DNA of 12,160 bases. Origin: a virus (lineage: Duplodnaviria > Heunggongvirae > Uroviricota > Caudoviricetes). The notes under the pieces were generated by a model. The model was not told where the DNA came from. It ran no database searches and saw only the letters and a list, made by a program, of their open reading frames with translations. Made by a program: the position numbers and the translations under genes. How positions within the stretch are numbered: position 1 is the stretch's first letter; each line of letters begins with the position of its first letter. Positions 1 through 12,160 of the stretch are shown here, in pieces. The stretch covers positions 1 to 12,160 of IMG/VR virus record IMGVR_UViG_2728369554_000008; one strand, given 5' to 3'.

Positions 1-339
1 TTATAATTTGTTACTGTGCCACTCAAGGGCAATATCTTTGAAGGTGTTGTTTAACTGCGTTTCCCGGGCAATCTTTTCCTCTCGCTTCACTTCCATCAGA
101 TCGATTCCCCCAGAGATACCTCTTTTAGCTTCTTCAAGTTTTGCAGGAGCATCAGCTAAGGTGACCTCAGGATACACACCTAGTGCTAACAGCTTCTCTT
201 TACCAGCTACACGATACTTGAGACGCCAATATTCTCCTCCACCAGGTTTTACCAGGAGGTACAGACCACCACCATCAGCCAACTTGTAAGCCTTCTCTTT
301 TGGCTTGGCAGTGTCTATTTGACGGGCATTGAGTTTCAC
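1..339 (-). CDS. P4-type tyrosine integrase, N-terminal arm-type DNA-binding domain only (112 aa; probably a truncated remnant)
   Basis: Minus-strand ORF starting at GTG 337-339 with GGAG about 9 nt upstream; the complement of positions 1-3 is TAA. Translation MKLNARQIDTAKPKEKAYKLADGGGLYLLVKPGGGEYWRLKYR...EWHSNKL matches the conserved N-terminus of P4-family integrases, which are normally about 400 aa, so the catalytic domain is missing from this frame. Confidence 0.7.
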   Translation of the reverse strand: MKLNARQIDTAKPKEKAYKLADGGGLYLLVKPGGGEYWRLKYRVAGKEKLLALGVYPEVTLADAPAKLEEAKRGISGGIDLMEVKREEKIARETQLNNTFKDIALEWHSNKL

Positions 340-493
340 TTGGGGGTATCTCCACTAAACTGAACAGCAAATCCCCTCAATTGCTTGTAGAGTTTGGGGT
401 ACTTAAATAGACGTCAAAAGACTAAAAGGGGCATTAATATACTGATTATAAGAGGTTTTTAAATACTTGAGTAGACTTGGGGAGACGTTAGAA

Positions 494-537
494 TGGTGCG
501 ATAATAGGAGTCGAACCTACGACCTTCGCATTACGAA
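494..537 (-). other. tRNA 3'-half remnant (tRNA-Thr(CGU)-like); putative attachment-site direct repeat, not a complete tRNA gene
   Basis: Reverse complement of 494-537 reads TTCGTAA-TGCGA-AGGTC-GTAGG-TTCGACT-CCTAT-TATCGC-A-CCA: anticodon loop with CGU, variable loop, T-arm with GGTTCGAnTCC, acceptor 3' strand and CCA. Sequence upstream of the anticodon loop (538-570) has no D-arm or 5' acceptor strand, and the acceptor strand is one nt short of canonical length. Confidence 0.6.
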
Positions 538-898
538 TTATAAGAATCCGCTTCTAATTCAAAGCATTACCCCATCAACACTGCGCTCACACGTCCCACC
601 ACATCAAAACATGTAAAGCCTTGCAAGCCATTGCGAGGCCTTATGTGTCTCAGTTTTGTCCCACCTTGTATTACGACTTGCATAGCCAATGAAGATAAAC
701 GTGACGACAAACGGCGCAGCAGTCTTCTTTTCCTTCATACTTTCCCCACCCAGCATGCATACCTTTATGCCATAACTGAAGTTTATGTCTGTTATGAGCG
801 AGGAGCGGAAGTCCGCAATTGTTCTTGCAACTAGGGCAGCTAAAAGACATGGCAGGCAAATGTCTACATGTAGGATACACCTGCTATCATAAAGAATC

Positions 899-1678
899 TT
901 AGTCCTGAAGCATTTTAACTTTCTTCTCATGCTTTTTATATTCGCCATTTATCCATTCAGGTTCTTCCCGAATAGCTGATCGCATACAGTGTGTTGGGAT
1001 ATCATTCCAGAAAGCTGTAATCGCATCTGCAAACTCTATAAACTGTGTTTCTGTAACCTCAAGTTGCTCATGACGTAGACTAAATCTATAGCCTCCTGGA
1101 ATATTGATATCCTGATAATACTCAGGATGCGCGACGGAAAGCTCCCGATGGGCATGGCCATCACCGTGCTTATAAACATTGACTACTTGGCGACAGGCAT
1201 CGATTTTTTCGTAATAAGCCTTGCCGGTGATATCCATCCCAACCCATTCTAGAATTTCAATTAGCCTTGGGAAGCCGATGTCCCAGATCATCGATGTTAC
1301 GGGTTTAGAGTCGAGCCAATGACTGAATTCACGGATACACTTTTCTCGAAGTTCCTTATCGAACTGGTGAAACATTCCTGCTGTCAGAGCAAGTGAAACC
1401 GTATTTTTCATATCACTGAGGGCAATCCAATGTGAAATTCCTTCATCATAAGCCTGTTCCCAGATAGCCCCCTCGTCGTCATAATCGGGGTCAAAACGCT
1501 TACCGGCGGCCTCATAGTAATCTTTTTCTTTCTGCCGAGCTTCAGCTTCAAGATCAGAATCGCTAAACTGCGAAAATAAACGTTTTCTGGCTTCAGAAAC
1601 ATAAAAATTGTGTTTGTCGAGGAAGTAAGCCCGATCAATGGTTGCAAAATAAAAAAGTGAAAAATCTTTTTCGCTCAT
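899..1678 (-). CDS. Hypothetical acidic protein, about 259 aa, function unknown (accessory cargo)
   Basis: ORF track gives 899-1756. The start is placed at the internal ATG (1676-1678) because GAGGGAG lies 6 nt upstream; the protein then begins MSEKDFSLFYF. It is rich in D/E, has an HGDGHAHRE segment, and matches no structural-phage motif I recognise. A hand count of line 1201-1260 gives 24/60 G+C. Confidence 0.7.
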   Translation of the reverse strand: MSEKDFSLFYFATIDRAYFLDKHNFYVSEARKRLFSQFSDSDLEAEARQKEKDYYEAAGKRFDPDYDDEGAIWEQAYDEGISHWIALSDMKNTVSLALTAGMFHQFDKELREKCIREFSHWLDSKPVTSMIWDIGFPRLIEILEWVGMDITGKAYYEKIDACRQVVNVYKHGDGHAHRELSVAHPEYYQDINIPGGYRFSLRHEQLEVTETQFIEFADAITAFWNDIPTHCMRSAIREEPEWINGEYKKHEKKVKMLQD

Positions 1679-2007
1679 GGGGATCTCCCTCGTTTCGTCA
1701 GTTCTACAAGCCCTTGGAAGTAGGCTGCTAATAAAGAAAAGATTACATTTGAACAACTGTGCAAGATAGCAGTACGCCTAAAGGTAGTGCAAGTATCCCA
1801 ACTAAGGTAACGATGCGTTTTCAAATATATGACTTAACGCTCGCGATATCCGCTTCTGGCACGAGGCGGACAGAACATGTGGACATGACGTCAGCTCTAA
1901 GCGAGGAGCTGATGCTAGCGGGGTAGGTTCAGTACAATCATAGGAGAGATCCAAAGTGTGCAGACACTGACTAAATTAAAGAAAATAGCATCTACGCTAT
2001 ATGGATA

Positions 2008-2928
2008 TTAATAATGTCTATGACGAATATCATTATACGCAGCCTCGGAAAGTTCGAATACCCGATCCAATCCGGAATGGGGTAATTCCACAACCAATCC
2101 CCGCTGAATAAGTTTATCGATCTGCATTAAAGCTATTTTATCTACAATAGATCGAGATAACTTAGGCGTTGCACCCAATAATACAGCTTTATATACTTCC
2201 ATAATTCTTACAATACTAGGCTCCCGATTACTATGCCTTAATTTAATAGCGCGAGTGAAACTAGGAAGCGAAAACTGTCGTCCTGACATGTTAAGTTCAA
2301 CATGTCCATAGAACATGTTAAATAGAATCCTTCGAAGTCCTTCATCAGATGATAAATAATCTATTAATTCTTCTTGTCTCTTTTCTTGAATCCAAGTTCT
2401 AATAAAGAGCCATCCTGATAATAACGATACACATAATAGATAGTATTGCGAATCAGGGAGCTGTAGCCAAGGTCCAATGATTGGGTTATCTTTAGCCGTA
2501 TTGGGAAACGTAAAAAAGAAAGCGCTTAGCGTCGCAAATACTCCTGACCCCAATCGAGGGAGAAATGCACGGGATCGTGTATCACTCCGAACTTCTGACT
2601 TTATTAATGAAGGCGTCAGACTAACAGTCTGAGTTCCTGTCGCAGTAATCACTTTAACCAAATCCATCACTTGTGACATGGGTATCAACTGTTTGTCATT
2701 TTCATCCGTAGATTTCTCAATAGACTGATTATCAATGAATTCTTTTGCTGAATTAAGGTGTTGCCATAGATTTTTTGACTCATCATCAATAAAAATACCA
2801 CTAGTATTGTCTGGATGTATTGATGCCATTTTTCTGACTATTGCCTGGCGTAACCCATTTGGGTCATTTTCCATAACATTAGAAAACTTAAAATATGCAG
2901 CAATTTCTTTATTATTTTTCCAGTCCAT
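2008..2928 (-). CDS. Hypothetical protein with two central hydrophobic segments, about 306 aa, very AT-rich (accessory cargo); start uncertain (2928 or 3003)
   Basis: ORF 2008-3003 in the track. No Shine-Dalgarno precedes the first ATG at 3003; the ATG at 2926-2928 (MDWKNNK) follows an AT-rich promoter-like stretch. Hydrophobic segments LGSGVFATLSAFFFTF and YYLLCVSLLSGWLFI. A hand count of line 2101-2160 gives 19/60 G+C. Confidence 0.65.
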   Translation of the reverse strand: MDWKNNKEIAAYFKFSNVMENDPNGLRQAIVRKMASIHPDNTSGIFIDDESKNLWQHLNSAKEFIDNQSIEKSTDENDKQLIPMSQVMDLVKVITATGTQTVSLTPSLIKSEVRSDTRSRAFLPRLGSGVFATLSAFFFTFPNTAKDNPIIGPWLQLPDSQYYLLCVSLLSGWLFIRTWIQEKRQEELIDYLSSDEGLRRILFNMFYGHVELNMSGRQFSLPSFTRAIKLRHSNREPSIVRIMEVYKAVLLGATPKLSRSIVDKIALMQIDKLIQRGLVVELPHSGLDRVFELSEAAYNDIRHRHY

Positions 2929-3472
2929 AGTAATTCTGCCCAATGAAGTAAAATATAAAATTTTATTTTTTCGTTTAGGTTGAGGTTTAATTAACAAAAG
3001 CATTAATGCTAAATCAAACGATAGTTCGCAATGACAATATAAACGTTTTCAGTGAGTTAAGCAATACTAGGAAATTATGAGACAGATTACGTCGCCTCCA
3101 CCATAATGATTAACGAACCGTACTTTTTGCAAAGTCCGCATCTGGCACATAGCAGACCAGAGACACTGGCGTAAAGCCATGGAGGATCGGTGGGAGGAGG
3201 TAAAAATCCTCTCATGCAAAAAATACGCAAAATCGATAACAGTTGGAAATCATTCAATACTCGCACTATCGAAAGTTCACCAGCCAACCGCAGCGCGTTC
3301 TTGCATACGACGTGGCTGCGGTTTCAACTCCGTCCCCCACCAATCATGATTGGGCAGTACCAGTACAGCACTAGTAAAAACTGGAAATAAGCAGTCTCAG
3401 CAAAATACCGGCCAGACGGTGAGAAGACAAAAAAGATACGCAAAGTAGCCGCGGCCCTTAGTGACATGAAAT

Positions 3473-3492
3473 CCCGCTATACGGGCTTTTTT
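3473..3492 (+). terminator. Candidate intrinsic terminator or attenuator hairpin upstream of the 3568 gene
   Basis: CCCG-CTATA-CGGG stem-loop followed directly by CTTTTTTGT on the plus strand. The stem is short (4 GC pairs), so function is uncertain. Confidence 0.3.
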
Positions 3493-3567
3493 GTATCTGC
3501 ACACGATTGATTATTAGGTCCGTATAGCTAATAGTGGTCTTAACCTACATATAGAATCAGAGACTTT

Positions 3568-4263
3568 ATGAAAAAGGAAATACTCAAGGCTCTTTGCCCT
3601 ACATGCGGTGGGTTACGTAACTGCACTGTGCATGGGAAGCTAACCACTAGCTGGGAGGATTCCCAATATCCAGTTTATGGGTACCATTACCATCACCTAC
3701 TCCAATGCAATGGCTGTGATACTGTCTTCTATCACCACAACGAACACTTCAGTGAGCATACTACCCACGAATATCGTGATGGTGAATTTGTAGAAACGCC
3801 TATAGATATGATCACTACCTATCCTGCCGCTGAAACATTTCAAGCTCCGATATGGTTATCCAAGCTTGAATCAGTTGATCGTCAGCTCTTTCAAATATTT
3901 AATGAAATGTATTCTTCATATACTTCTGACCATTTCATCCTTTCGTCCATCGGTTTACGGACGATTTTTGATCGAACTGCTGAACTGTTACAAATTCACC
4001 CCGGTTTGCCGCTTGGTGAAAAAGTTGAAAAATTAAAACAAGATGGAGTCATAGGCGACACTGAGGCATGCGTTATATCTTCTGTAATTGATGCAGGAAA
4101 CGCCGCCGCACATCGCAGTTGGAGCCCGAATAAAAGTGAGTTCGAACAAATGCTAGAAGCTATAGAAAGTTTTGTCCAAAGAACTATCTTGGGCAAAAAA
4201 TCACTTGAACATATAACCAAACAACTCCCACCTCGGGTTACAAGACCTAAAAATAGTGCATAA
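3568..4263 (+). CDS. Zinc-ribbon plus DUF4145-like domain protein, 231 aa (candidate accessory/defence gene)
   Basis: N-terminus has CPTC (x33) CNGC, a four-cysteine zinc-ribbon pattern. The C-terminus LGEKVEKLKQDGVIGDTEACVISSVIDAGNAAAHRSWSPNKSEFEQMLEAIESFV fits the remembered DUF4145 pattern (L-x-x-K-I-x-x-L, then G-N-x-A-A-H). A hand count of line 3901-3960 gives 22/60 G+C. It is convergent with the invertase gene. Confidence 0.8.
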   Translation: MKKEILKALCPTCGGLRNCTVHGKLTTSWEDSQYPVYGYHYHHLLQCNGCDTVFYHHNEHFSEHTTHEYRDGEFVETPIDMITTYPAAETFQAPIWLSKLESVDRQLFQIFNEMYSSYTSDHFILSSIGLRTIFDRTAELLQIHPGLPLGEKVEKLKQDGVIGDTEACVISSVIDAGNAAAHRSWSPNKSEFEQMLEAIESFVQRTILGKKSLEHITKQLPPRVTRPKNSA

Positions 4264-4289
4264 TCCGCGATCATCAATGTGGCGTAAGG

Positions 4290-4847
4290 TTATGGTTTAC
4301 TTGCTACAGGGAATTTTTTATACACCGTTGAAATACCCAGATCATAAATCAGTGCGACTTGCTGCTGATATATTCCCGATTCAATCAACCTGCCAGCCTG
4401 CTCCCATTGTTCTACTGTCAGCTTTGGCTTTCGCCCACCATTCCTCCCTTCTTGTCGTGCTGCGGCAAAGCCCGCCCTAGTACGTTCGACAATAAGCTCT
4501 CGCTCCATTTCAGCCAGGGCACCCATCACATGAAAGAAAAAGCGCCCCATTGGTGTGCTGGTATCAATAGCATCCGTCAGGCTGCGAAAATTAACGCCAC
4601 GTTCGCGCAACTCCTCCACCAGCACGACAAGATGCCGCATACTGCGCCCCAGTCGGTCCAGTTTCCAGACTACCAGAGTGTCACCTGCTGATAATGTTCT
4701 GAGCAGTTTTTTCAGTCCCGGTCGGTCGGACTTAGTGCCGCTGATCTTATCTTCAAAAATCAGCTCACATCCTGCACACTCCAGCGCATTACGCTGCAAT
4801 TCCGTATTCTGGTCATTTGTTGATACGCGGACATAGCCAATAAGCAT
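4290..4847 (-). CDS. pin: Site-specific DNA invertase, serine recombinase of the Pin/Gin/Hin/Cin family
   Basis: Translation MLIGYVRVSTNDQNT...GDTLVVWKLDRLGRSM...MGRFFFHVMGALAEMERELIVERT with a C-terminal helix-turn-helix: the catalytic Ser in YVRVST and the hallmark motifs of DNA invertases. The start is set at the ATG (4845-4847) preceded by AGGGGA; the track's extension to 4892 is not supported by family alignment. Confidence 0.95.
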   Translation of the reverse strand: MLIGYVRVSTNDQNTELQRNALECAGCELIFEDKISGTKSDRPGLKKLLRTLSAGDTLVVWKLDRLGRSMRHLVVLVEELRERGVNFRSLTDAIDTSTPMGRFFFHVMGALAEMERELIVERTRAGFAAARQEGRNGGRKPKLTVEQWEQAGRLIESGIYQQQVALIYDLGISTVYKKFPVASKP

Positions 4848-4874
4848 GAGCATTCCCCTGAGTAAAAACCGGGG

Positions 4875-5414
4875 ATGATGCCAGTTAGCCATAATCTCTG
4901 CATTTTCTTAAACGTTGGTTTGGGAGAAGGCTCTGCATTACCTGTTGGTGTCCCTGTTCCGTGGCCTTCAGCCACACCGCCAACAGGCTGGCTGAAATGC
5001 AATGGTGCCGCTTTTTCTGCTGAAGAATACCCGGAACTGACAAAGGCTTATCCGACAAATAAATTGCCTGATTTACGTGGTGAGTTTATTCGTGGCTGGG
5101 ATGACGGGCGGGGGATTGATACAGGTCGCTCTATTTTAAGTATTCAGGGGTATGCAACGGAGGATCATGCTCATGGATTACCGTCAAGATCCACGATTGT
5201 GACTGATGCAACGATTAATTTCTATTTTGATGAAAACTGGGTAAATAGTGGCACTGACATTATCAAAAGAGGAAACACAAACGATGCCGGATTACCAGCA
5301 CCGGATTATGGAACCTTTAAAACATATAAACAATCAGTGGCTGGTTTAGGTACCGCAGCCTCAGAAACGCGTCCGCGTAATATTGCATTTAACTATATCG
5401 TAAGGGCAGCCTGA
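4875..5414 (+). CDS. Alternative tail-fibre C-terminal cassette (Sv'-type), currently in the unexpressed orientation; functional coding begins at the crossover site near 4917
   Basis: Translation across the site reads NVGLGEG, matching NLGLGEA in the constant part of the tail-fibre gene at 6812-6837. Downstream motifs WLKCNGAAFSAEEYPELTKAYPTNKLPDLRGEFIRGWDDGRG are typical of Mu/P1/e14-type fibre tips. There is no plausible independent start; the ATG at 4875 lies in the invertase upstream region. Confidence 0.8.
   Translation: MMPVSHNLCIFLNVGLGEGSALPVGVPVPWPSATPPTGWLKCNGAAFSAEEYPELTKAYPTNKLPDLRGEFIRGWDDGRGIDTGRSILSIQGYATEDHAHGLPSRSTIVTDATINFYFDENWVNSGTDIIKRGNTNDAGLPAPDYGTFKTYKQSVAGLGTAASETRPRNIAFNYIVRAA
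4903..4928. repeat. Invertase crossover site 1 (hix/gix-like, 12-2-12)
   Basis: Plus strand TTTTCTTAAACG-TT-GGTTTGGGAGAA. Its reverse complement shares TTCTCCCAAACCAA with site 2, and it lies about 56 bp upstream of the invertase start. Confidence 0.8.
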
Positions 5415-6016
5415 TGCATAAAGCAATATTAAATAGTGAGCTTATTGCAACAAAGGCAGGGGATGTTACCGTTTATAACTACGATGGTGAAACACTGGAA
5501 TATATTTCCACGTCAACTGAATATCTTGCTGTGGGTGTCGGTATTCCGGCATGTTCCTGTCTTGATGCACCTGGCATACATAAGGTTGGTTATGCAATCT
5601 GTCGTTCTGTGAATTTAAATTCATGGGAATATGTGCCAGACCATCGCGGTGAAATCGTCTATAGCACCGAAACAGGAGAATCAAAAGAAATCACAGCTCC
5701 GGGTGATTACCCTGAAAATACAACCACTATCGCCCCTTTATCTCCATACGATAAATGGGATGGTGAGAAATGGGTGACCGATACTGAGGCACAGCATAGC
5801 GCCGCAGTCGAAGCGGCAGAAGCACAACGCCAGTCACTGATTGATGCTGCAATGGCTTCCATTAGTCTGATTCAGCTGAAATTACAAGCCGGACGGAAAC
5901 TGACGCAGGCAGAAACAACCCGACTTAACGCCGTGCTGGATTACATTGACGCGGTGACGGCAACAGATACCAGCACCGCGCCGGATGTCATCTGGCCTGA
6001 ACTGCCGGAGGCGTAG
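5414..6016 (+). CDS. Tail-fibre assembly protein (Tfa/U'-type), partner of the silent fibre cassette
   Basis: Its ATG overlaps the TGA of the preceding cassette (TGATG). The C-terminus LDYIDAVTATDTSTAPDVIWPELPEA parallels the C-terminus of the opposite-strand Tfa, as in paired U/U' chaperones. Confidence 0.85.
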   Translation: MHKAILNSELIATKAGDVTVYNYDGETLEYISTSTEYLAVGVGIPACSCLDAPGIHKVGYAICRSVNLNSWEYVPDHRGEIVYSTETGESKEITAPGDYPENTTTIAPLSPYDKWDGEKWVTDTEAQHSAAVEAAEAQRQSLIDAAMASISLIQLKLQAGRKLTQAETTRLNAVLDYIDAVTATDTSTAPDVIWPELPEA

Positions 6017-6431
6017 GCCATTCAATATCTGGAGCACTGGAGATATCCACCAGTTCCAGTGCGTCCAGGTAATCCAGCCACAAATTATATTGCGCCAGTT
6101 CCTCGCCTTTCAGACGACCAATAGCGGCTTTACCGGGCCATTGTTTACTGTTCATGTATTCGTTGGCCTGGTTAATTAGTAGCTGTCTTTCTGATTCAGT
6201 AATTTCAATAAGCTCTTCATGCGTGGGTGGAGGAATATCTGCCCACGCAGGCAGCCCATCATCTCCGGCAATACGGATTTTTCCTTGTGGCGGTTCAGCC
6301 ATAAACTCACTGATAATATTTTGATTTACTTCCTTAGCGTCTGATAAATCCCATCCCTCTGATTTATATTTATCAATCATATCCACAGGGAAAAAAGCAT
6401 TATGCCTTGCGCTATAAACATATTCGTTCAT
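5988..6431 (-). CDS. Tail-fibre assembly protein (Tfa/U-type), partner of the expressed fibre
   Basis: Start is set at the ATG (6429-6431, MNEYVY) preceded by AGGGTGA; the track begins at an upstream GTG (6440). C-terminus LWLDYLDALELVDISSAPDIEWPTPP. Its 3' end overlaps the convergent Tfa gene by about 29 bp. Confidence 0.85.
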   Translation of the reverse strand: MNEYVYSARHNAFFPVDMIDKYKSEGWDLSDAKEVNQNIISEFMAEPPQGKIRIAGDDGLPAWADIPPPTHEELIEITESERQLLINQANEYMNSKQWPGKAAIGRLKGEELAQYNLWLDYLDALELVDISSAPDIEWPTPPAVQAR

Positions 6432-6451
6432 ATAAATCACCCTGAATAAAA

Positions 6452-7114
6452 TTACTCACCAACAGCCCACCAACTGTAATTCATCGATACCGTGTCGCTG
6501 GTTGATGACGTTCTGTAAGCAGAATTAAAGCCGGTTAACGTTGGGTCTTCTGCAGTCATCACGAACCCTCGCCCAGCGCCTAAAGGCGCACCGCCATCAC
6601 CAGAATGAGTAAGCATGGCGCAGTCCGCTTTTTTGGGGAAAGGGATGCTGAATGTAATTCTCATTGTTTGCGTCGATAATTTCGGCGTAACCGCACCACG
6701 ACCATATTGCAGGATTTTCCCGTTGGGTAATTTCATCCATCCATCACCACTGGCAAAAGAGGCCATGTCCGGTATCTGATTTTCCCCTGTTCCAACCCCC
6801 CGTTTCGCCGCTTCTCCCAAACCAAGGTTTTCGAGAGCCGTTGGTACTGTGCCATCCGATTTGATATCACCAAACGGATTCTTGCGGCTTAACAGCAGCG
6901 CACGAAGCGCTGTAAGCAGCTGGTCATGCCGCCCCTTCTCCAGGCTGGCACCGGATGCCTCCACCACGCTGCAAAGCTCCTCCTGCAACATGTCAAAGTA
7001 GTCATCATCCAGATCGGTGGCAGGCGTGCCGGTCTGGGGGTTACCACGGGTAAAACCGTTCTTACCCGCGCCGAACTTATCCTTCTGCGCGGTTTTCGTG
7101 TCTATACGATGCAT
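6452..7114 (-). CDS. Tail-fibre protein (constant N-terminal part fused to the currently expressed variable C-terminal part)
   Basis: N-terminus [67 protein letters not shown] is a conserved prophage tail-fibre N-terminal domain. Crossover site 2 lies inside the gene at 6812-6837, so residues after ALENLGLGE are exchangeable. Confidence 0.9.
6812..6837. repeat. Invertase crossover site 2 (hix/gix-like, 12-2-12), inside the tail-fibre gene
   Basis: Plus strand TTCTCCCAAACC-AA-GGTTTTCGAGAG, an imperfect palindrome with an AA core. It is inverted relative to site 1 (plus-strand core TT) and resembles hixL as I remember it (TTCTTGAAAACC-AA-GGTTTTTGATAA). Confidence 0.8.
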
Positions 7115-7117
7115 GAA

Positions 7118-7702
7118 TTACTCCGGATATTTAAAAATTACGTAGGTATGCGACGGGCAGAGTTTGTTAAGCACACACTCGACAACGGTGTCGCCCCAGA
7201 TACGCAGTGCGGAATCACAGGGATCGCCACATGTCATCCAGGTGGTGTTGGTGGCGGCTGGCATGTTGACCTGCCAGTAATACCGCCATTCCGGCGCATT
7301 CACCGCGTCAGTACAGGCCGATGAGCAGGTGAACGTGCTTTTGTCGTATCGCGTGATGGTGGCGTCTGGTCTGCCCAGGGCAGCAAGCTGTGCAAGGTAA
7401 AAATCCTCATTGATGCCGCCCGCCAGGTTAACCTTCGCATCCAGTCGTTGCTGACGCTGGCGAAGGGTCTGTGTCCCTGCGGGAATACATTCATCCGGCA
7501 GGCCGCACAGACGCTCCCAGCGGTTTATCAGTTCGGTGGTGGTGCGCGGATCCAGCTCCCGCATCAGGGCATCCGCACGCTGATGAACGCGGGTTAATGA
7601 CGGTGCCGCACCGGCAATCGCCGGATCTCTGGCTGACCACGCCGGACCGGGGGGCAACAGTGCCGACAACAGACGGATGTAATCATCGTTTGTCACGTCC
7701 AT
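7118..7702 (-). CDS. Mu gp48-like tail/baseplate protein (DUF2313, e14 YmfQ-like), 194 aa
   Basis: Lies directly upstream of the tail-fibre gene with a 3-nt gap, and its size and position match Mu gp48 and e14 YmfQ. Assigned by position and remembered family features; no search was run. Confidence 0.8.
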
Positions 7703-8751
7703 GAAATCGTCCCCAGTACCGCCAGTTCATTTTTTGCAATGGAGATATTGTCTGCCGGTGCAAGCAACTGATGGCTGTATTCCCCGTTCGCACCGGAAAT
7801 CGCCTCACTGATACGCGACACCTTCAGTTCTCCCTGCGGATAACCATCACGCAGCAGGAACGAACGCAACTCGGCGGTGATGGCAGCCCGTATTTCCGGT
7901 GTGTCCGGCGTCACGCGGATATGAAAATCCACTTTATGCGCCACCGGCCTGAATACATACAAATCAGAGCCTGCCACCGGGGCCAGTGGCTCAATGTGTT
8001 GTCTTGCCGCCGTTTCCGTTGATTCTTCCGGAATGGGATTAATCAGGTCACTGCCGGCAATCATCACACCGACAGTCCCCGTTCCCATCCAGTGGCGGTA
8101 TGTCCATGCGCGGGTAATGCCGGGCACTTCTTTAGCCCAGACAACATAGTCCCCGTCAGCCCCGCCCTGAGGAGTCCAGTAATACCGCTCAATGACGCGG
8201 GCGCGCCACGTTTCCAGATCTTCAGTATCAAATCCACCTGTCAGAGTGTCTGCCACGCCGGAAGACGGCAGACCATTAACCGGCGTGACCAGGATTAATG
8301 ACGTACCGTCGTCAGCGTTACCGACCGTGCCTGCACTTGAGCAGGCGATCGGCACGCGCAGGACACCACCGGCGCTGGTTGCATCGGCAGTTGCCGTGTA
8401 CTGAACCAGGTCATCGCGCTGAATAACACTCCCGGCGGTCACCTTCAGGCCATCGCTGACGCCTTCCCAGCGCATATACCCGCTGGCAGTCGTGGCCCCC
8501 TTGCGCGGACACCGTTTCATCGCAGCATGTCGCGCCAGCCAGGACTCATCGCACAGGTCAGGCAGCATGTTCATTGCCAGATAATCGATGTACCCGTAAA
8601 CCGTATGCAGCGCCGCCGCATACACCTTTGCCCGCACGTCTTCATCCATGCGCCGGAGCGTGTCGCTGACGTCCAGCCTGGCGAATAAATCGTTACGGAG
8701 CATACTGATATTTTCTGCCAGCGTCGGGCGCTGAAATTCACTGTCCGCCAT
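7693..8751 (-). CDS. Baseplate J-like protein (Mu gp47 homologue), 352 aa
   Basis: Size and position in the operon match Mu gp47. Its 3' end overlaps the gp48-like start by 10 nt. Confidence 0.85.
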
Positions 8752-9166
8752 GCGTTATCGCACTCCACAGATCATCAAAAGAAATCATTACCGGTCCGTC
8801 ACGACGCCAGAGAGTGATACTGTTACCCAGTTCATTAATCCCGGTGCGGCGGATATCCAGATCAATACGGGACACCACGCCGTCATCAATCATCCATTGC
8901 AGGCATTCGCGGATATACCCCCTTACCGTCAGCACCAGTTGATTGGTCAGTTTGCTGCGCTGAAGCAGCCACAGTCGGGAGCCGTAACGGTCATTCTGTA
9001 CCGCAGGCCAGGTATCCCCCCACCATCCCATCGGGACTTCGGCGTTGTCATCAGGCTCCGCCCGCCGCCAGGTAAACAGGGAAATCACCACAGCGCGGGT
9101 CAGCGGATCCAGCTGTGCGCTGGCGCAGGTGCGTTTACCGTTCACCGTCAGCCACAGTTCCATCAT
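8738..9166 (-). CDS. Mu gp46-like baseplate protein (Phage GP46 family), 142 aa
   Basis: Small protein between the gp45-like and gp47-like genes, overlapping both neighbours, as in Mu. Confidence 0.8.
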   Translation of the reverse strand: MMELWLTVNGKRTCASAQLDPLTRAVVISLFTWRRAEPDDNAEVPMGWWGDTWPAVQNDRYGSRLWLLQRSKLTNQLVLTVRGYIRECLQWMIDDGVVSRIDLDIRRTGINELGNSITLWRRDGPVMISFDDLWSAITHGGQ

Positions 9167-9711
9167 GCCTCCATCGCTTTATCAGGTTTGTCGGTGTTAC
9201 TGCCCTGACCGTTCTCTCTGTGACGATGCCCGTTATAGGCAAGCCGCATCGCTGACATGGTGGTACCGCCGGAGTCGCACAGGTCTTTCACCTGTCCGGT
9301 CACTTCCAGGTCCATTTCAAAACGTGCTCTGGGCGCATTGCGAAACGTGATCGTTTTACCTGCACCGTCCACCACAATCCCCTCCCGGGTCAGCGTCACG
9401 GACTGCCCCTGATCGTCATAGACCGCCACCTCACCCGTCTGCAGCCCTTTCAGGCGGTAGCGCCGGTCCGACACCGTAACAACCACCGCATGAGAACGGT
9501 CACCATCCGGAAACAACACCACCGCTTCCGCACCGCTGTTTGCCCTTGCGGTAAAACCGTAGGGTTCAAGATGTTCAACCCCGGCTTTGGGTTCACCGGC
9601 AATCAGGGACACATCCACGGTCTGACATTTCGTGGCGGCACTGATGCTTTTCACCACTGCCCGCCCAATCAGCCCGAGGAGTTGTCGCTGCATGGCTTCA
9701 ATCGTCCTCAT
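9163..9711 (-). CDS. Baseplate assembly/spike protein V-like (Mu gp45 homologue), 182 aa
   Basis: Position and size match Mu gp45. Stop and start overlap the neighbours (ATGA-type coupling). Confidence 0.8.
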   Translation of the reverse strand: MRTIEAMQRQLLGLIGRAVVKSISAATKCQTVDVSLIAGEPKAGVEHLEPYGFTARANSGAEAVVLFPDGDRSHAVVVTVSDRRYRLKGLQTGEVAVYDDQGQSVTLTREGIVVDGAGKTITFRNAPRARFEMDLEVTGQVKDLCDSGGTTMSAMRLAYNGHRHRENGQGSNTDKPDKAMEA

Positions 9712-10790
9712 CAGAACGGGTCCTCCTGTACTCTGGCTTTTTTCTTTTTCCGCGCGCCGGGGGCTTCGGGTTCAGGCAGATAAGCATCAGGCGGGCCGAC
9801 ACGGATTTCCGTCAGGGTGCCGTTCTGGTCCTGAGTAAACGTGACTTCCGAGACAAGCAGTTCGGTATTGTCGAAACCACAGACAGGATCGAAGACAATC
9901 ACCCGCTGGTTGGGCTGCCACAGCGTACCGTTACCCTGTCGCCAGCCCTGCACCACATAGGTGGTTTCATCCGTCCGCGCCGCCCGTTGCCGGGCTTCAA
10001 AGTCAGCACGCGCAATACAGCCTGCCCCCGTAGCCTGCCCTGTCTGCCTGATATACATCGGACGGTAACGGGCAATAAATGCGTCTTCTGTGCGGGCCCG
10101 CAGCGCGGTGGTGGTGGCCTCACCGAAATCATCGTCGTTTCCGGCACGCTGCCCCGCCACCTGGTAAACAGAAAACCGCTCCCGGATACTCTTCTCCGTA
10201 TCGCAGGAAAGGATGTTTTCCCCAAGTACCAGCGCGGTATGTGCCCGCGTTGAGCCAATACCGCCAATCACCAGCCTGCCGTGCGGGTCGTCGTAAGCCA
10301 GCGCCTGCTGCTGACCGAGTATTTTGTTGATCACCTCAATCACCGTTTCACCGTGATCAGGCTGGACATCAGGAATAACACCCGACGGCGCACCGCTGTT
10401 CACCACCTCAATGCCGAAAGGCGCAGCAAGCGCCTGCGCAATCTGAACCAGCGATCGTCCGTTAAACTGTGTCGGTTCGGCTGCACAGTCAATCAGGTCA
10501 GCGGTCAGACTACGCCCAGCAATACCGGTGCTGACCGAACGGGCATCATAACGAACGGGAGTCGCCTCCACCCAGCCGGTGATCACCAGCTCATCACCAA
10601 TCAGCACTTCCACTTTTGAACCGTTTTTAATACGCGGCTGAAGCGTGGTGATACCCTCATCTCCCGGCCACTGGCGGGTGATCTCCACACTGAAATCCCG
10701 CGTCAGCCGTTCAATACCGGCACCGATGCGCACCGATGTCCAGCCATTCCACTCCCGGCCATTTACCCGTAGCGTGACGTTATCATTCAT
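9711..10790 (-). CDS. Mu gp44(P)-like baseplate hub / phage late control D-family protein, 359 aa
   Basis: Position between the gp43-like and gp45-like genes, with a lysine-rich C-terminus (ARKKKKARVQEDPF). High G+C and translationally coupled to neighbours. Confidence 0.8.
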   Translation of the reverse strand: MNDNVTLRVNGREWNGWTSVRIGAGIERLTRDFSVEITRQWPGDEGITTLQPRIKNGSKVEVLIGDELVITGWVEATPVRYDARSVSTGIAGRSLTADLIDCAAEPTQFNGRSLVQIAQALAAPFGIEVVNSGAPSGVIPDVQPDHGETVIEVINKILGQQQALAYDDPHGRLVIGGIGSTRAHTALVLGENILSCDTEKSIRERFSVYQVAGQRAGNDDDFGEATTTALRARTEDAFIARYRPMYIRQTGQATGAGCIARADFEARQRAARTDETTYVVQGWRQGNGTLWQPNQRVIVFDPVCGFDNTELLVSEVTFTQDQNGTLTEIRVGPPDAYLPEPEAPGARKKKKARVQEDPF

Positions 10791-12160
10791 AGCACTGGCA
10801 CCTTCAGAGGGATCACCGGCACAAAGCCGGGATGCGTAATGGCATTACGCCGGATAATGTCCGCGTCACGCGCCGCGTTATCAAACCAGGTCGCCGCCAG
10901 CACCAGCGCGGGTAAGACCTCATCCGGCGTGCGCTGAATGATCCGTGCAGACTGTTCAAGGCGCGTGTTGATATCCGCATTCAGATCTGCTTTCACCCGG
11001 CGCAGCGCCAGAAACAGCGCATCACTGGTTGTACGGGACAACTCCTTATCAATTGCCGTATTCAGTGTGTCGCGAATGTCAGTCAGTTCTTCCCACGTCG
11101 GCAGGTCAACCGTGTTTTTCACCGCCGGTGCATTGTTCAGTGCCGGATGCGTGACGGAAGGCCAGCCGGTGCTCTGCGCGGGTGTTGTTGACTGCCCCAC
11201 TGCGGCATTCTGCATCACCGCGGAAATTGTTGGCGCAGGCAATCGGGTGATGGCATACGCCGCTTCGCTGATTGCGGTCGTACGAAGGGTGCTGGCAACC
11301 ACGTTACGCTGCTGCGTTGCCGTGGCGGTGGTTTTACTGTCCGTTTTCCAGACGCCGCGCGGTTGCAGATCGCTGCCGAGGCTGACACCGGAAAGCGTTT
11401 TGATCATGGTGACCAGGTCGCTGGCGTTACCATAAAGGCGTTTCCCGGTACGCCACATTTTCTGCACCTGCTCAACGAAATTTTTGCCTGACGATGGCGG
11501 CGGCAGAAGTACCGAGATATCCCCCTGCAACAGCCTGGCGGCATCCGATACGGCAGAATCCACCACTTTCATCGCATCAGAAACATACCCCAGCATTATG
11601 CTGGCATTACCGATAACGTCGTTCTGCACGAAATCCGCCACACCATCGATACTGAAACCGCTGAAGCTGTCACTGATGCAGTCATCCAGTGCAGAACAGG
11701 ATGACATCAGCGTCTGCGCCGTCGCCACACCTGATGTGGGGTAAGAGAGTTCTCCTGCTTCGACAAACTTCAGGTCAAAGCGGACAATACGCCCTTCACT
11801 TTTCGATGTGCTGACCCGAACTTCCCCGTCAACACAGACTTTCAGCTCACCATATGTCGGGTGGACAAGCGTGCCGGGACCGGGTTTATTCAGCGCTTCA
11901 ATCAGGCGATCGCGCTGGTCAAAGCAGTCATCTCCCACCACATAAGCTGTGATGGACGGGCGGAAAGTGACTTTTCCCAGATCTTCGGTATAGGGCTTGT
12001 CGCGGTTCGGGTATTCGTGCGTTTCCACACGACGACCGGTTCCCGCACTTTCTTCTTCAACCTTAAACGGCACACCTCGAAATGATGCTTCAAGTAGCTT
12101 TTCACGCCAGCCACTTCGAGAATCAGAGGATAGGTACGAAGAAATATGAGAAAAATCCAT
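10787..12160 (-). CDS. Mu gp43(N)-like DNA circularisation protein; the ATG coincides with the window edge, so the true start may lie outside
   Basis: N-terminal region WREKLLEASFRGVPFKVEEESAGTGRRVETHEYPNRDKPYTEDLGKV...GPGTLVHPTYGEL matches the DNA circularisation N-terminal domain as I remember it, followed by a long Ala/Thr/Ser-rich region. Overlaps the gp44-like start by 4 nt. Confidence 0.85.
   Translation of the reverse strand: MDFSHISSYLSSDSRSGWREKLLEASFRGVPFKVEEESAGTGRRVETHEYPNRDKPYTEDLGKVTFRPSITAYVVGDDCFDQRDRLIEALNKPGPGTLVHPTYGELKVCVDGEVRVSTSKSEGRIVRFDLKFVEAGELSYPTSGVATAQTLMSSCSALDDCISDSFSGFSIDGVADFVQNDVIGNASIMLGYVSDAMKVVDSAVSDAARLLQGDISVLLPPPSSGKNFVEQVQKMWRTGKRLYGNASDLVTMIKTLSGVSLGSDLQPRGVWKTDSKTTATATQQRNVVASTLRTTAISEAAYAITRLPAPTISAVMQNAAVGQSTTPAQSTGWPSVTHPALNNAPAVKNTVDLPTWEELTDIRDTLNTAIDKELSRTTSDALFLALRRVKADLNADINTRLEQSARIIQRTPDEVLPALVLAATWFDNAARDADIIRRNAITHPGFVPVIPLKVPVL

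Follow-up and report, generated by a model that had tools for sequence, protein, structure and literature searches.

A variable cargo slot between the DNA invertase and the thrW attachment site of an SfV/e14-type prophage, carrying three candidate anti-phage genes

The 12,160-nt stretch of viral DNA analysed here (IMG/VR record IMGVR_UViG_2728369554_000008, positions 1 to 12,160; hereafter the window) contains part of a prophage of the SfV/e14 type integrated at the tRNA gene thrW. Positions 538-4289 of this window, which lie between a DNA invertase gene and an attachment (att) site, are best explained as the att-proximal cargo ('moron') slot of this prophage, carrying anti-phage cassettes, a reading to which we give a probability of roughly 0.6. 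That the region is a variable accessory slot is very probable. The defence role of its three genes, here called A, B and C, is drawn from genomic context only and is somewhat favoured: relatives of B occur with CBASS (cyclic oligonucleotide-based anti-phage signalling system) and Shango, with restriction-modification (R-M) genes, Gabija and AbiH, a homologue of A lies in a P2 hotspot, and a homologue of C is found beside a Gabija-like pair.

An earlier reading, made from the letters alone (the sequence-only reading), had described the region as an AT-rich island of three open reading frames (ORFs) in mixed orientation, separated by long gaps of about 330 and 640 bp and bordered by a tRNA-derived att-like remnant. 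Three intact ORFs on both strands are indeed present, with gaps of 329 bp between A and B (1679-2007) and 639 bp between B and C, and the remnant is a fragment of thrW. The slot and its borders are as follows:

492..538, minus strand: att copy, the 3' 47 nt of the tRNA-Thr(CGU) gene thrW (identity 47/48 to positions 31-78 of E. coli K-12 thrW)
899..1678, minus strand: gene A, 259 amino acids (aa) from its ATG, all-helical, candidate HEPN-fold effector
2008..2928, minus strand: gene B, 306 aa, with an N-terminal J domain, two hydrophobic segments and a C-terminal winged-helix-like domain
2929..3567, no strand: divergent B-C intergenic region, 639 bp, holding a mosaic junction (about 3127-3326)
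3568..4263, plus strand: gene C, 231 aa, Cys4 zinc ribbon at the N-terminus and DUF4145 (HEPN-clan) domain at the C-terminus
4290..4892, minus strand: Pin/Gin-type serine DNA invertase (Pfam Resolvase, E 2e-51, and HTH_7), which is conserved and borders the slot on the right

The G+C content of 538-4289 is 0.412 (0.422 in A, 0.371 in B and 0.417 in C, with a minimum of 0.323 over 400 nt), whereas the tail genes reach 0.568 and the invertase 0.498. The region is thus AT-rich, as had been noted, but the counts of single lines made by hand in the sequence-only reading overstate the contrast.

Content and assembly of the slot

The homologous slot in related prophages holds at least seven different contents:

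SfV: gtrV-gtrB-gtrA, between the tail-fibre assembly gene and int
e14: homologous ymfQ-stfP tail genes, then pinE, mcrA and att
SKA5: DinI; the counterpart of the window invertase is annotated there as DNA invertase
T309.Ta3, integrated at dusA: int-DinI-C-invertase
CFE299: acyltransferase, helix-turn-helix (HTH) pseudogene, B and A
ECZP248: prophage scraps and C
Strain 123636 and about nine other genomes: A, with IS1 in place of B

This comparison with related prophages, which the sequence-only reading had proposed, confirms a slot of variable accessory content, and the analogy it had drawn with e14, where mcrA stands beside pinE, holds as well: the window invertase is homologous in position to pinE, and the adjoining mcrA, which encodes a type IV restriction enzyme, is a known defence gene in the slot of a relative. 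The slot occupies the same position, between the tail-fibre or invertase genes and att, as pinE-mcrA in e14, gtrABV in SfV and gin-com-mom in Mu, and, like the slots of related phages, varies in content between otherwise near-identical prophages. It can also be compared with the defence hotspots of P2 and P4 (Rousset et al., 2022, PMC9122126), as a homologue of gene A is found inside the P2 hotspot itself, between ogr and the portal gene and adjoining a PycTM gene. In contrast to the known cargo slots, that of the window carries three uncharacterised single genes and no known restriction, modification or serotype-conversion system, and it adjoins another integrated element in a tandem array at thrW.

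The combination of A, B and C was found in none of 5,426 complete E. coli genomes. Within this collection, A and B occur together in a single genome and A in about 16, while C is present in 34, always beside the invertase. The left block of the window, 1-3326, is common to CFE299, and the right block, from about 3127-3221 onward, is common to C-bearing prophages; the window is therefore a mosaic in which an A+B block was joined to a C+invertase block at about 3127-3326. The segment at this junction, roughly 100-200 bp, is itself common to A+B-type and C-type variants of the slot, and relatives have capsid and HTH pseudogene scraps annotated at its position; it looks like a recombination joint that assembles different cargo combinations.

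The 'island of three genes' of the sequence-only reading hence stands as a variable cargo slot beside the invertase, but not as one island or system, since its genes are separate cassettes brought together across a mosaic junction. An operon or multi-gene system formed by A, B and C was considered and rejected, as each of them is also found apart from the other two in unrelated surroundings (A without B, B without A, and C without either were all seen among the loci examined) and as the window is mosaic. A separate observation concerns most of the A-carrying E. coli genomes, in which IS1 replaces gene B at the thrW locus (L032:7206-7903 and about nine others). The invertase is a pseudogene in these IS1-bearing strains, and the slot is therefore eroding there.

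Genes A, B and C

A, B and C are real genes rather than chance ORFs, because they belong to conserved families (about 92 clusters for A, about 395 representative clusters for B and 17 clusters for C) and because the ratio of non-synonymous to synonymous substitution rates (dN/dS) is 0.15 for A and 0.22-0.33 for B. All three are full length relative to their own families and share 99-100% identity with copies in other strains and, for B, also in another genus. The absence of any likeness to phage morphogenesis, lysis or regulation genes, claimed from the sequence alone, was borne out: no phage structural, lysis or regulatory family matched A, B or C, and tblastn of the three proteins against 50,697 phage genomes gave no match.

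In gene C, residues 115-199 match Pfam DUF4145 (PF13643; E 8.8e-10, 39 bits versus a cut-off of 23.1), and the protein matches phrog_1305 (E 5e-43). DUF4145 is a domain of the HEPN superfamily that is often fused to zinc ribbons (PMC3710099). In C, the sequence pattern of a Cys4 ribbon is formed by C10-x2-C13 and C47-x2-C50, with C47 and C50 invariant and C13 nearly so in 13 relatives; R131, D135, R136, H182, R183 and W185 are also invariant in the family, and Ile174, replaced by Val or Thr in some members, lies eight residues upstream of His182. The sequence-only reading could name no system for any of the three proteins; this holds insofar as no PADLOC model matches any of the families, but C does share its zinc-ribbon and DUF4145/HEPN architecture with RAZR (PD-T7-4; RRL46918.1) and with DS-38. 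RAZR, for ring-activated zinc-finger RNase, is a single-protein abortive-infection system of E. coli, in which the zinc finger binds ring-shaped phage proteins and the DUF4145 domain cuts RNA, with R146 and H154, in an R-x7-H arrangement, both essential (Nature 2026, PMC13017515). DS-38, from the DefensePredictor screen, is a second validated zinc-finger/HEPN defence protein, with a different finger, and was likened to C by the description of its architecture only. C and RAZR are both single proteins of similar size (231 aa for C; PD-T7-4 ORF 34-694, about 220 codons). Each has a Cys4 zinc ribbon at the N-terminus, DUF4145/HEPN at the C-terminus and a conserved His within a G-N-x3-H motif, and each is encoded by an accessory gene in E. 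coli.

In Enterobacter hormaechei, an identical C-family protein is encoded at the same chromosomal junction, downstream of liv transporter genes, in three loci (L025, L026 and L027; gene 7001-7696), where it lies at the chromosome-proximal end of prophages of three types, P2/Mu-like, lambdoid, and P22-like with gtrABC. In Burkholderia, a homologue of C adjoins a Gabija-like pair and a phosphoribosyltransferase (PRTase) gene. By analogy, we conclude that C would work like RAZR, with zinc-ribbon sensing and a HEPN output. As far as its sequence tells, C has a known architecture but forms a distinct subfamily, for which no sequence relationship to RAZR was detectable, and is a candidate nuclease. 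It is a probable defence gene.

Gene B is the novel element among the three, as its architecture is undescribed. An HPD (His-Pro-Asp) motif is found at positions 38-40, of which the His is invariant and the Pro and Asp are at least 90% conserved in 105 relatives. Although B of the window itself falls below the Pfam DnaJ threshold, 37 of the 105 relatives match DnaJ individually (best 6.7e-7). Comparison of the B family with a hand-compiled J-domain alignment by hhalign gave a probability of 95.3% (E 2.4e-8) with the HPD motifs aligned, and the family profile matched the solved J domain of E. coli DnaJ in the PDB (1bqz, E 1.2e-5) together with dozens of other J domains. Judged by these matches, B has a bona fide J domain. 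DnaJ is the sole Pfam or NCBIfam family matched by the B family, with no model for the whole protein. Hydropathy indicates two hydrophobic segments, at about 126-142 and 161-180, which form a predicted membrane hairpin; an invariant P-R-x-G-S-G motif precedes them, and Glu182, also invariant, follows. With five basic residues immediately ahead of the first segment and three immediately behind the second, both soluble domains are probably cytoplasmic. The C-terminal 120 residues gave weak winged-helix matches only (Foldseek against the PDB, E 0.3-1, from a model with a mean confidence score, pLDDT, of 65).

A word-indexed search for the B family returned 8 clusters, whereas an exhaustive profile search returned the 395 representative clusters, of about 300 aa and with the same full-length architecture, in Proteobacteria and beyond. 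Several members lie among defence genes. In Erwinia typographi, a B protein (L021:9926-10921, aligned with window 2008-3003) shares 99% identity with that of the window, upstream extension included, and stands between a type II CBASS operon (Cap4-SAVED nuclease, CD-NTase, E1-E2 and JAB) and the Shango genes SngB and SngC, with Mokosh-like, Mrr-like and type IV restriction endonuclease-like genes nearby. This copy points to a very recent horizontal transfer of a single-gene B cassette, because it is 99% identical in a different genus and embedded between CBASS and Shango. In Klebsiella, B follows a P4-type integrase and abuts a type I R-M system with an AAA_13 gene; in Proteus, it stands beside Gabija; and on other contigs, AbiH or large helicases are found nearby. 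Gene A is absent from all of these loci. As a yardstick for such neighbourhoods, DefensePredictor reports a defence-island background of about 2% over the whole of the E. coli genes and of 17% for known defence genes. A 310-aa gene adjoining B in Klebsiella was considered as a homologue of A and rejected (BLASTP E 1.6). A scan of the genome collection for B with a narrower alignment returned 4 loci.

B shares with the membrane-anchored bacterial proteins DjlA, DjlB and DjlC, and with Rki of phage RB43, a J domain with its HPD motif, and it has predicted membrane segments. In DjlA, the J domain is C-terminal and a transmembrane segment lies at the N-terminus; DjlC is anchored by its C-terminus, and Rki is a soluble protein. 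Compared with these architectures, B differs by its N-terminal J domain, central hairpin and winged-helix-like C-terminus, so that the J domain alone is held in common; unlike DjlA, DjlB and DjlC, moreover, it is found in defence islands and not in housekeeping loci. B presumably acts through DnaK, because of its J domain with HPD and its predicted membrane segments. A search of the literature on J-domain or DnaJ-domain proteins combined with defence systems or islands found no J-domain defence gene described, the nearest case being host DnaJ, which mediates phage sensing by bNACHT25 (PMC12169576). That B is a defence gene is a tentative proposal, and it is rather doubtful that it represents an undescribed class of immune genes, namely a membrane-anchored J-domain protein coupling the DnaK cycle to phage sensing or exclusion.

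Gene A carries the motif R163-x3-N167-x3-H171, in which N167 and H171 do not vary over 55 sequences; R163 is found in 58% of these and is otherwise Gln, His or Asn. The x7 spacing between Arg and His equals that of R146 and H154 in RAZR (PMC13017515) and exceeds the classical x4-6. In structure, A comes closest to HEPN toxins of toxin-antitoxin systems. Neither A nor any of 55 relatives matched Pfam, and no profile likeness to families of the HEPN clan was detected; A had no match among PDB sequences, and Foldseek against the PDB returned helical-bundle noise only. A relationship of A to the DUF4145 domain of C was tried and not significant (hhalign probability 0.3%). A differs from HepT SO_3166 (PDB 5yep, HEPN-MNT) and the DUF86 proteins in having twice their length and in lacking an MNT partner. 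It is a probable new, Pfam-less branch of HEPN proteins. Its assignment as a defence gene has a little less than an even chance.

Proposed mode of action and competing explanations

In the model that we propose, three single-gene cassettes that move independently would have entered the slot by recombination, and each cassette would most probably be a superinfection or abortive-infection gene protecting the lysogen. The zinc ribbon of C, a variable part, would bind a phage protein, upon which, as in RAZR, RNA cleavage by the DUF4145/HEPN domain would arrest the infected cell. A could be a second, more divergent RNase-type effector with a HEPN fold, whose extra N-terminal helices may serve as a sensor or oligomerisation module. 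B would be held in the inner membrane by its hairpin, with the J domain and the winged-helix tail in the cytoplasm, and the J domain would recruit host DnaK. Either DnaK would silence the membrane module until phage protein synthesis titrates the chaperone, making B a guard, or a phage client bound by the winged helix would be delivered to DnaK at the membrane.

Several results weigh against this model. PADLOC-DB 2.0.0 returned no model match for A, B, C or the scanned family members, which include all 13 relatives of C, with scattered single hits at chance level only. This version presumably includes a model for PD-T7-4. C further differs from RAZR in having Ile, Val or Thr at the position of the essential R146 and an invariant Arg directly after the His, and neither C nor its family profile matched any PDB chain at E<=10 with HMMER, including those of the RAZR-Gp77 entries 9y6u and 9y9c. 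The active site of C would hence be an altered one, with His182/Arg183 and Arg131/Arg136 replacing the canonical Arg at H-8; on sequence grounds, R183, R131 and R136 might substitute for the missing catalytic Arg. As for B, its AlphaFold2 model has a pLDDT of 65, i.e., moderate confidence, three distant B loci have no obvious defence neighbours, and a scan of IMG/VR viral contigs found no relative.

The slot might alternatively carry lysogenic-conversion or host-physiology cargo, with B, for instance, rewiring DnaK toward envelope stress or capsule signalling, in the way that DjlA, when over-produced, acts through Rcs, and with A and C acting as RNA-processing or regulatory proteins of benefit to the lysogen. 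Slot content in the SfV group, where it consists of O-antigen modification genes and not of defence genes, fits this proposal, as do the acyltransferase of CFE299, the predicted membrane location of B together with its J domain, and the lack of PADLOC matches; more broadly, gtr/oac-type serotype-conversion genes are present in SfV, in CFE299 and in an Enterobacter relative. However, a Pfam scan found no glycosyltransferase, flippase or acyltransferase domain in A, B or C, nor does any of them have an envelope-related domain, and B recurs in dense defence islands of four genera. Single-gene proteins combining HEPN/DUF4145 with a zinc ribbon are, besides, experimentally shown defence proteins (PMC13017515). 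Conversion or physiology cargo is thus an improbable account of the three genes.

Toxin-like features raise another explanation, in which A and C would be selfish toxins stabilising the element and B hitch-hiking cargo, with no role in phage immunity. It draws on the structural matches of A noted above and on the membership of DUF4145 in the HEPN toxin superfamily (PMC3710099), but no conserved small antitoxin gene stands beside A or C in the contexts examined, where they occur as single cassettes, and the identical C at the ends of three prophage types fits cargo exchange better; we consider addiction quite improbable. It is highly improbable that the slot consists of recombination leftovers between tandem elements, with decaying ORFs that do not function in the host: the mosaic junction near 3127-3326, the long non-coding gaps, and the capsid and HTH pseudogene fragments and IS1 in the slots of relatives would all be expected of such debris, but the genes are full length relative to their families and under purifying selection, with the 99-100% identical copies elsewhere, for B even in another genus.

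Cargo slots of prophages have proved to yield new immune genes, and the anti-phage reading of this slot would add three compact single-gene candidates that current models miss. From C, it could be learnt to what extent the RAZR mechanism withstands the loss of the catalytic Arg and a different zinc ribbon, and A would add a Pfam-less branch to HEPN effectors. B matters most: if it does act in defence, it would be a dedicated J-domain protein tied to anti-phage immunity, complementing the DnaJ-bNACHT25 case (PMC12169576), and such 'chaperone-guarded immunity' could be addressed through a single HPD point mutant. Prophage hotspots with candidate defence genes are a type of feature known before, whereas a B active in defence would be new in kind.

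Host element, attachment site and neighbouring features

Outside the slot, the window contains three further features:

1..339, minus strand: P4-type tyrosine integrase, N-terminal 112 codons (Pfam Arm-DNA-bind_3, E 9e-24)
4875-6440, both strands: tail-fibre C-terminal and assembly genes, forming an invertible segment that adjoins the invertase
6452..12160, minus strand: baseplate and tail genes of the Mu/SfV/e14 type

The tail genes identify the family of the prophage as SfV/e14-type. The tail and baseplate module is 96-97% identical in nucleotide sequence to those of the Shigella serotype-converting phages SfIV, SfII, SfV and SfI and of coliphage SKA5, with 97% identity for the SfV baseplate genes, and its counterparts in relatives are annotated as ymfQ, stfP, baseplate J, gp46, V and DNA circularization protein, ymfQ and stfP being as in the e14 remnant.

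The prophage occupies the thrW/CP4-6 site, where another element is integrated in tandem with it. This placement is drawn from the thrW fragment and from the flanking genes in related E. coli genomes: ECZP248 has yagP and paoABCD there, CFE299 has the vat island, and strain 123636 has a P4-like satellite. The integrase at 1-339 is part of the adjacent element at thrW and not of the prophage: its counterpart is a truncated pseudogene beside the vat toxin island in CFE299 and is full length in the P4-like satellite of strain 123636. The thrW locus therefore carries a tandem array of mobile elements, and the att copy at 492-538 marks the border between two of them. No complete tRNA was found at the thrW fragment with ARAGORN or Rfam.

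A fourth ORF, 604-948 on the minus strand (114 aa), lies between att and A, overlapping the 3' end of A. Searches of Pfam, NCBIfam, PHROGs and PADLOC gave no match for this ORF, which is probably spurious. Promoter and terminator scans of the window gave nothing beyond shuffled expectation, and a repeat search found no relevant repeats. The Rfam scan returned two sub-threshold matches only. One of these, at 3289-3412 on the minus strand, is to the Shigella small RNA CssrB (21 bits, E 0.38), with a near-perfect match over the 3' 44 nt. The CssrB-like stretch is located in the B-C intergenic region, at the mosaic junction, and may correspond to a sequence common to the ends of Shigella SfV-type prophages.

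On the other side of the invertase, the tail-fibre segment at 4875-6440 is a host-range segment of the invertible kind also present in e14, Mu and SKA5.

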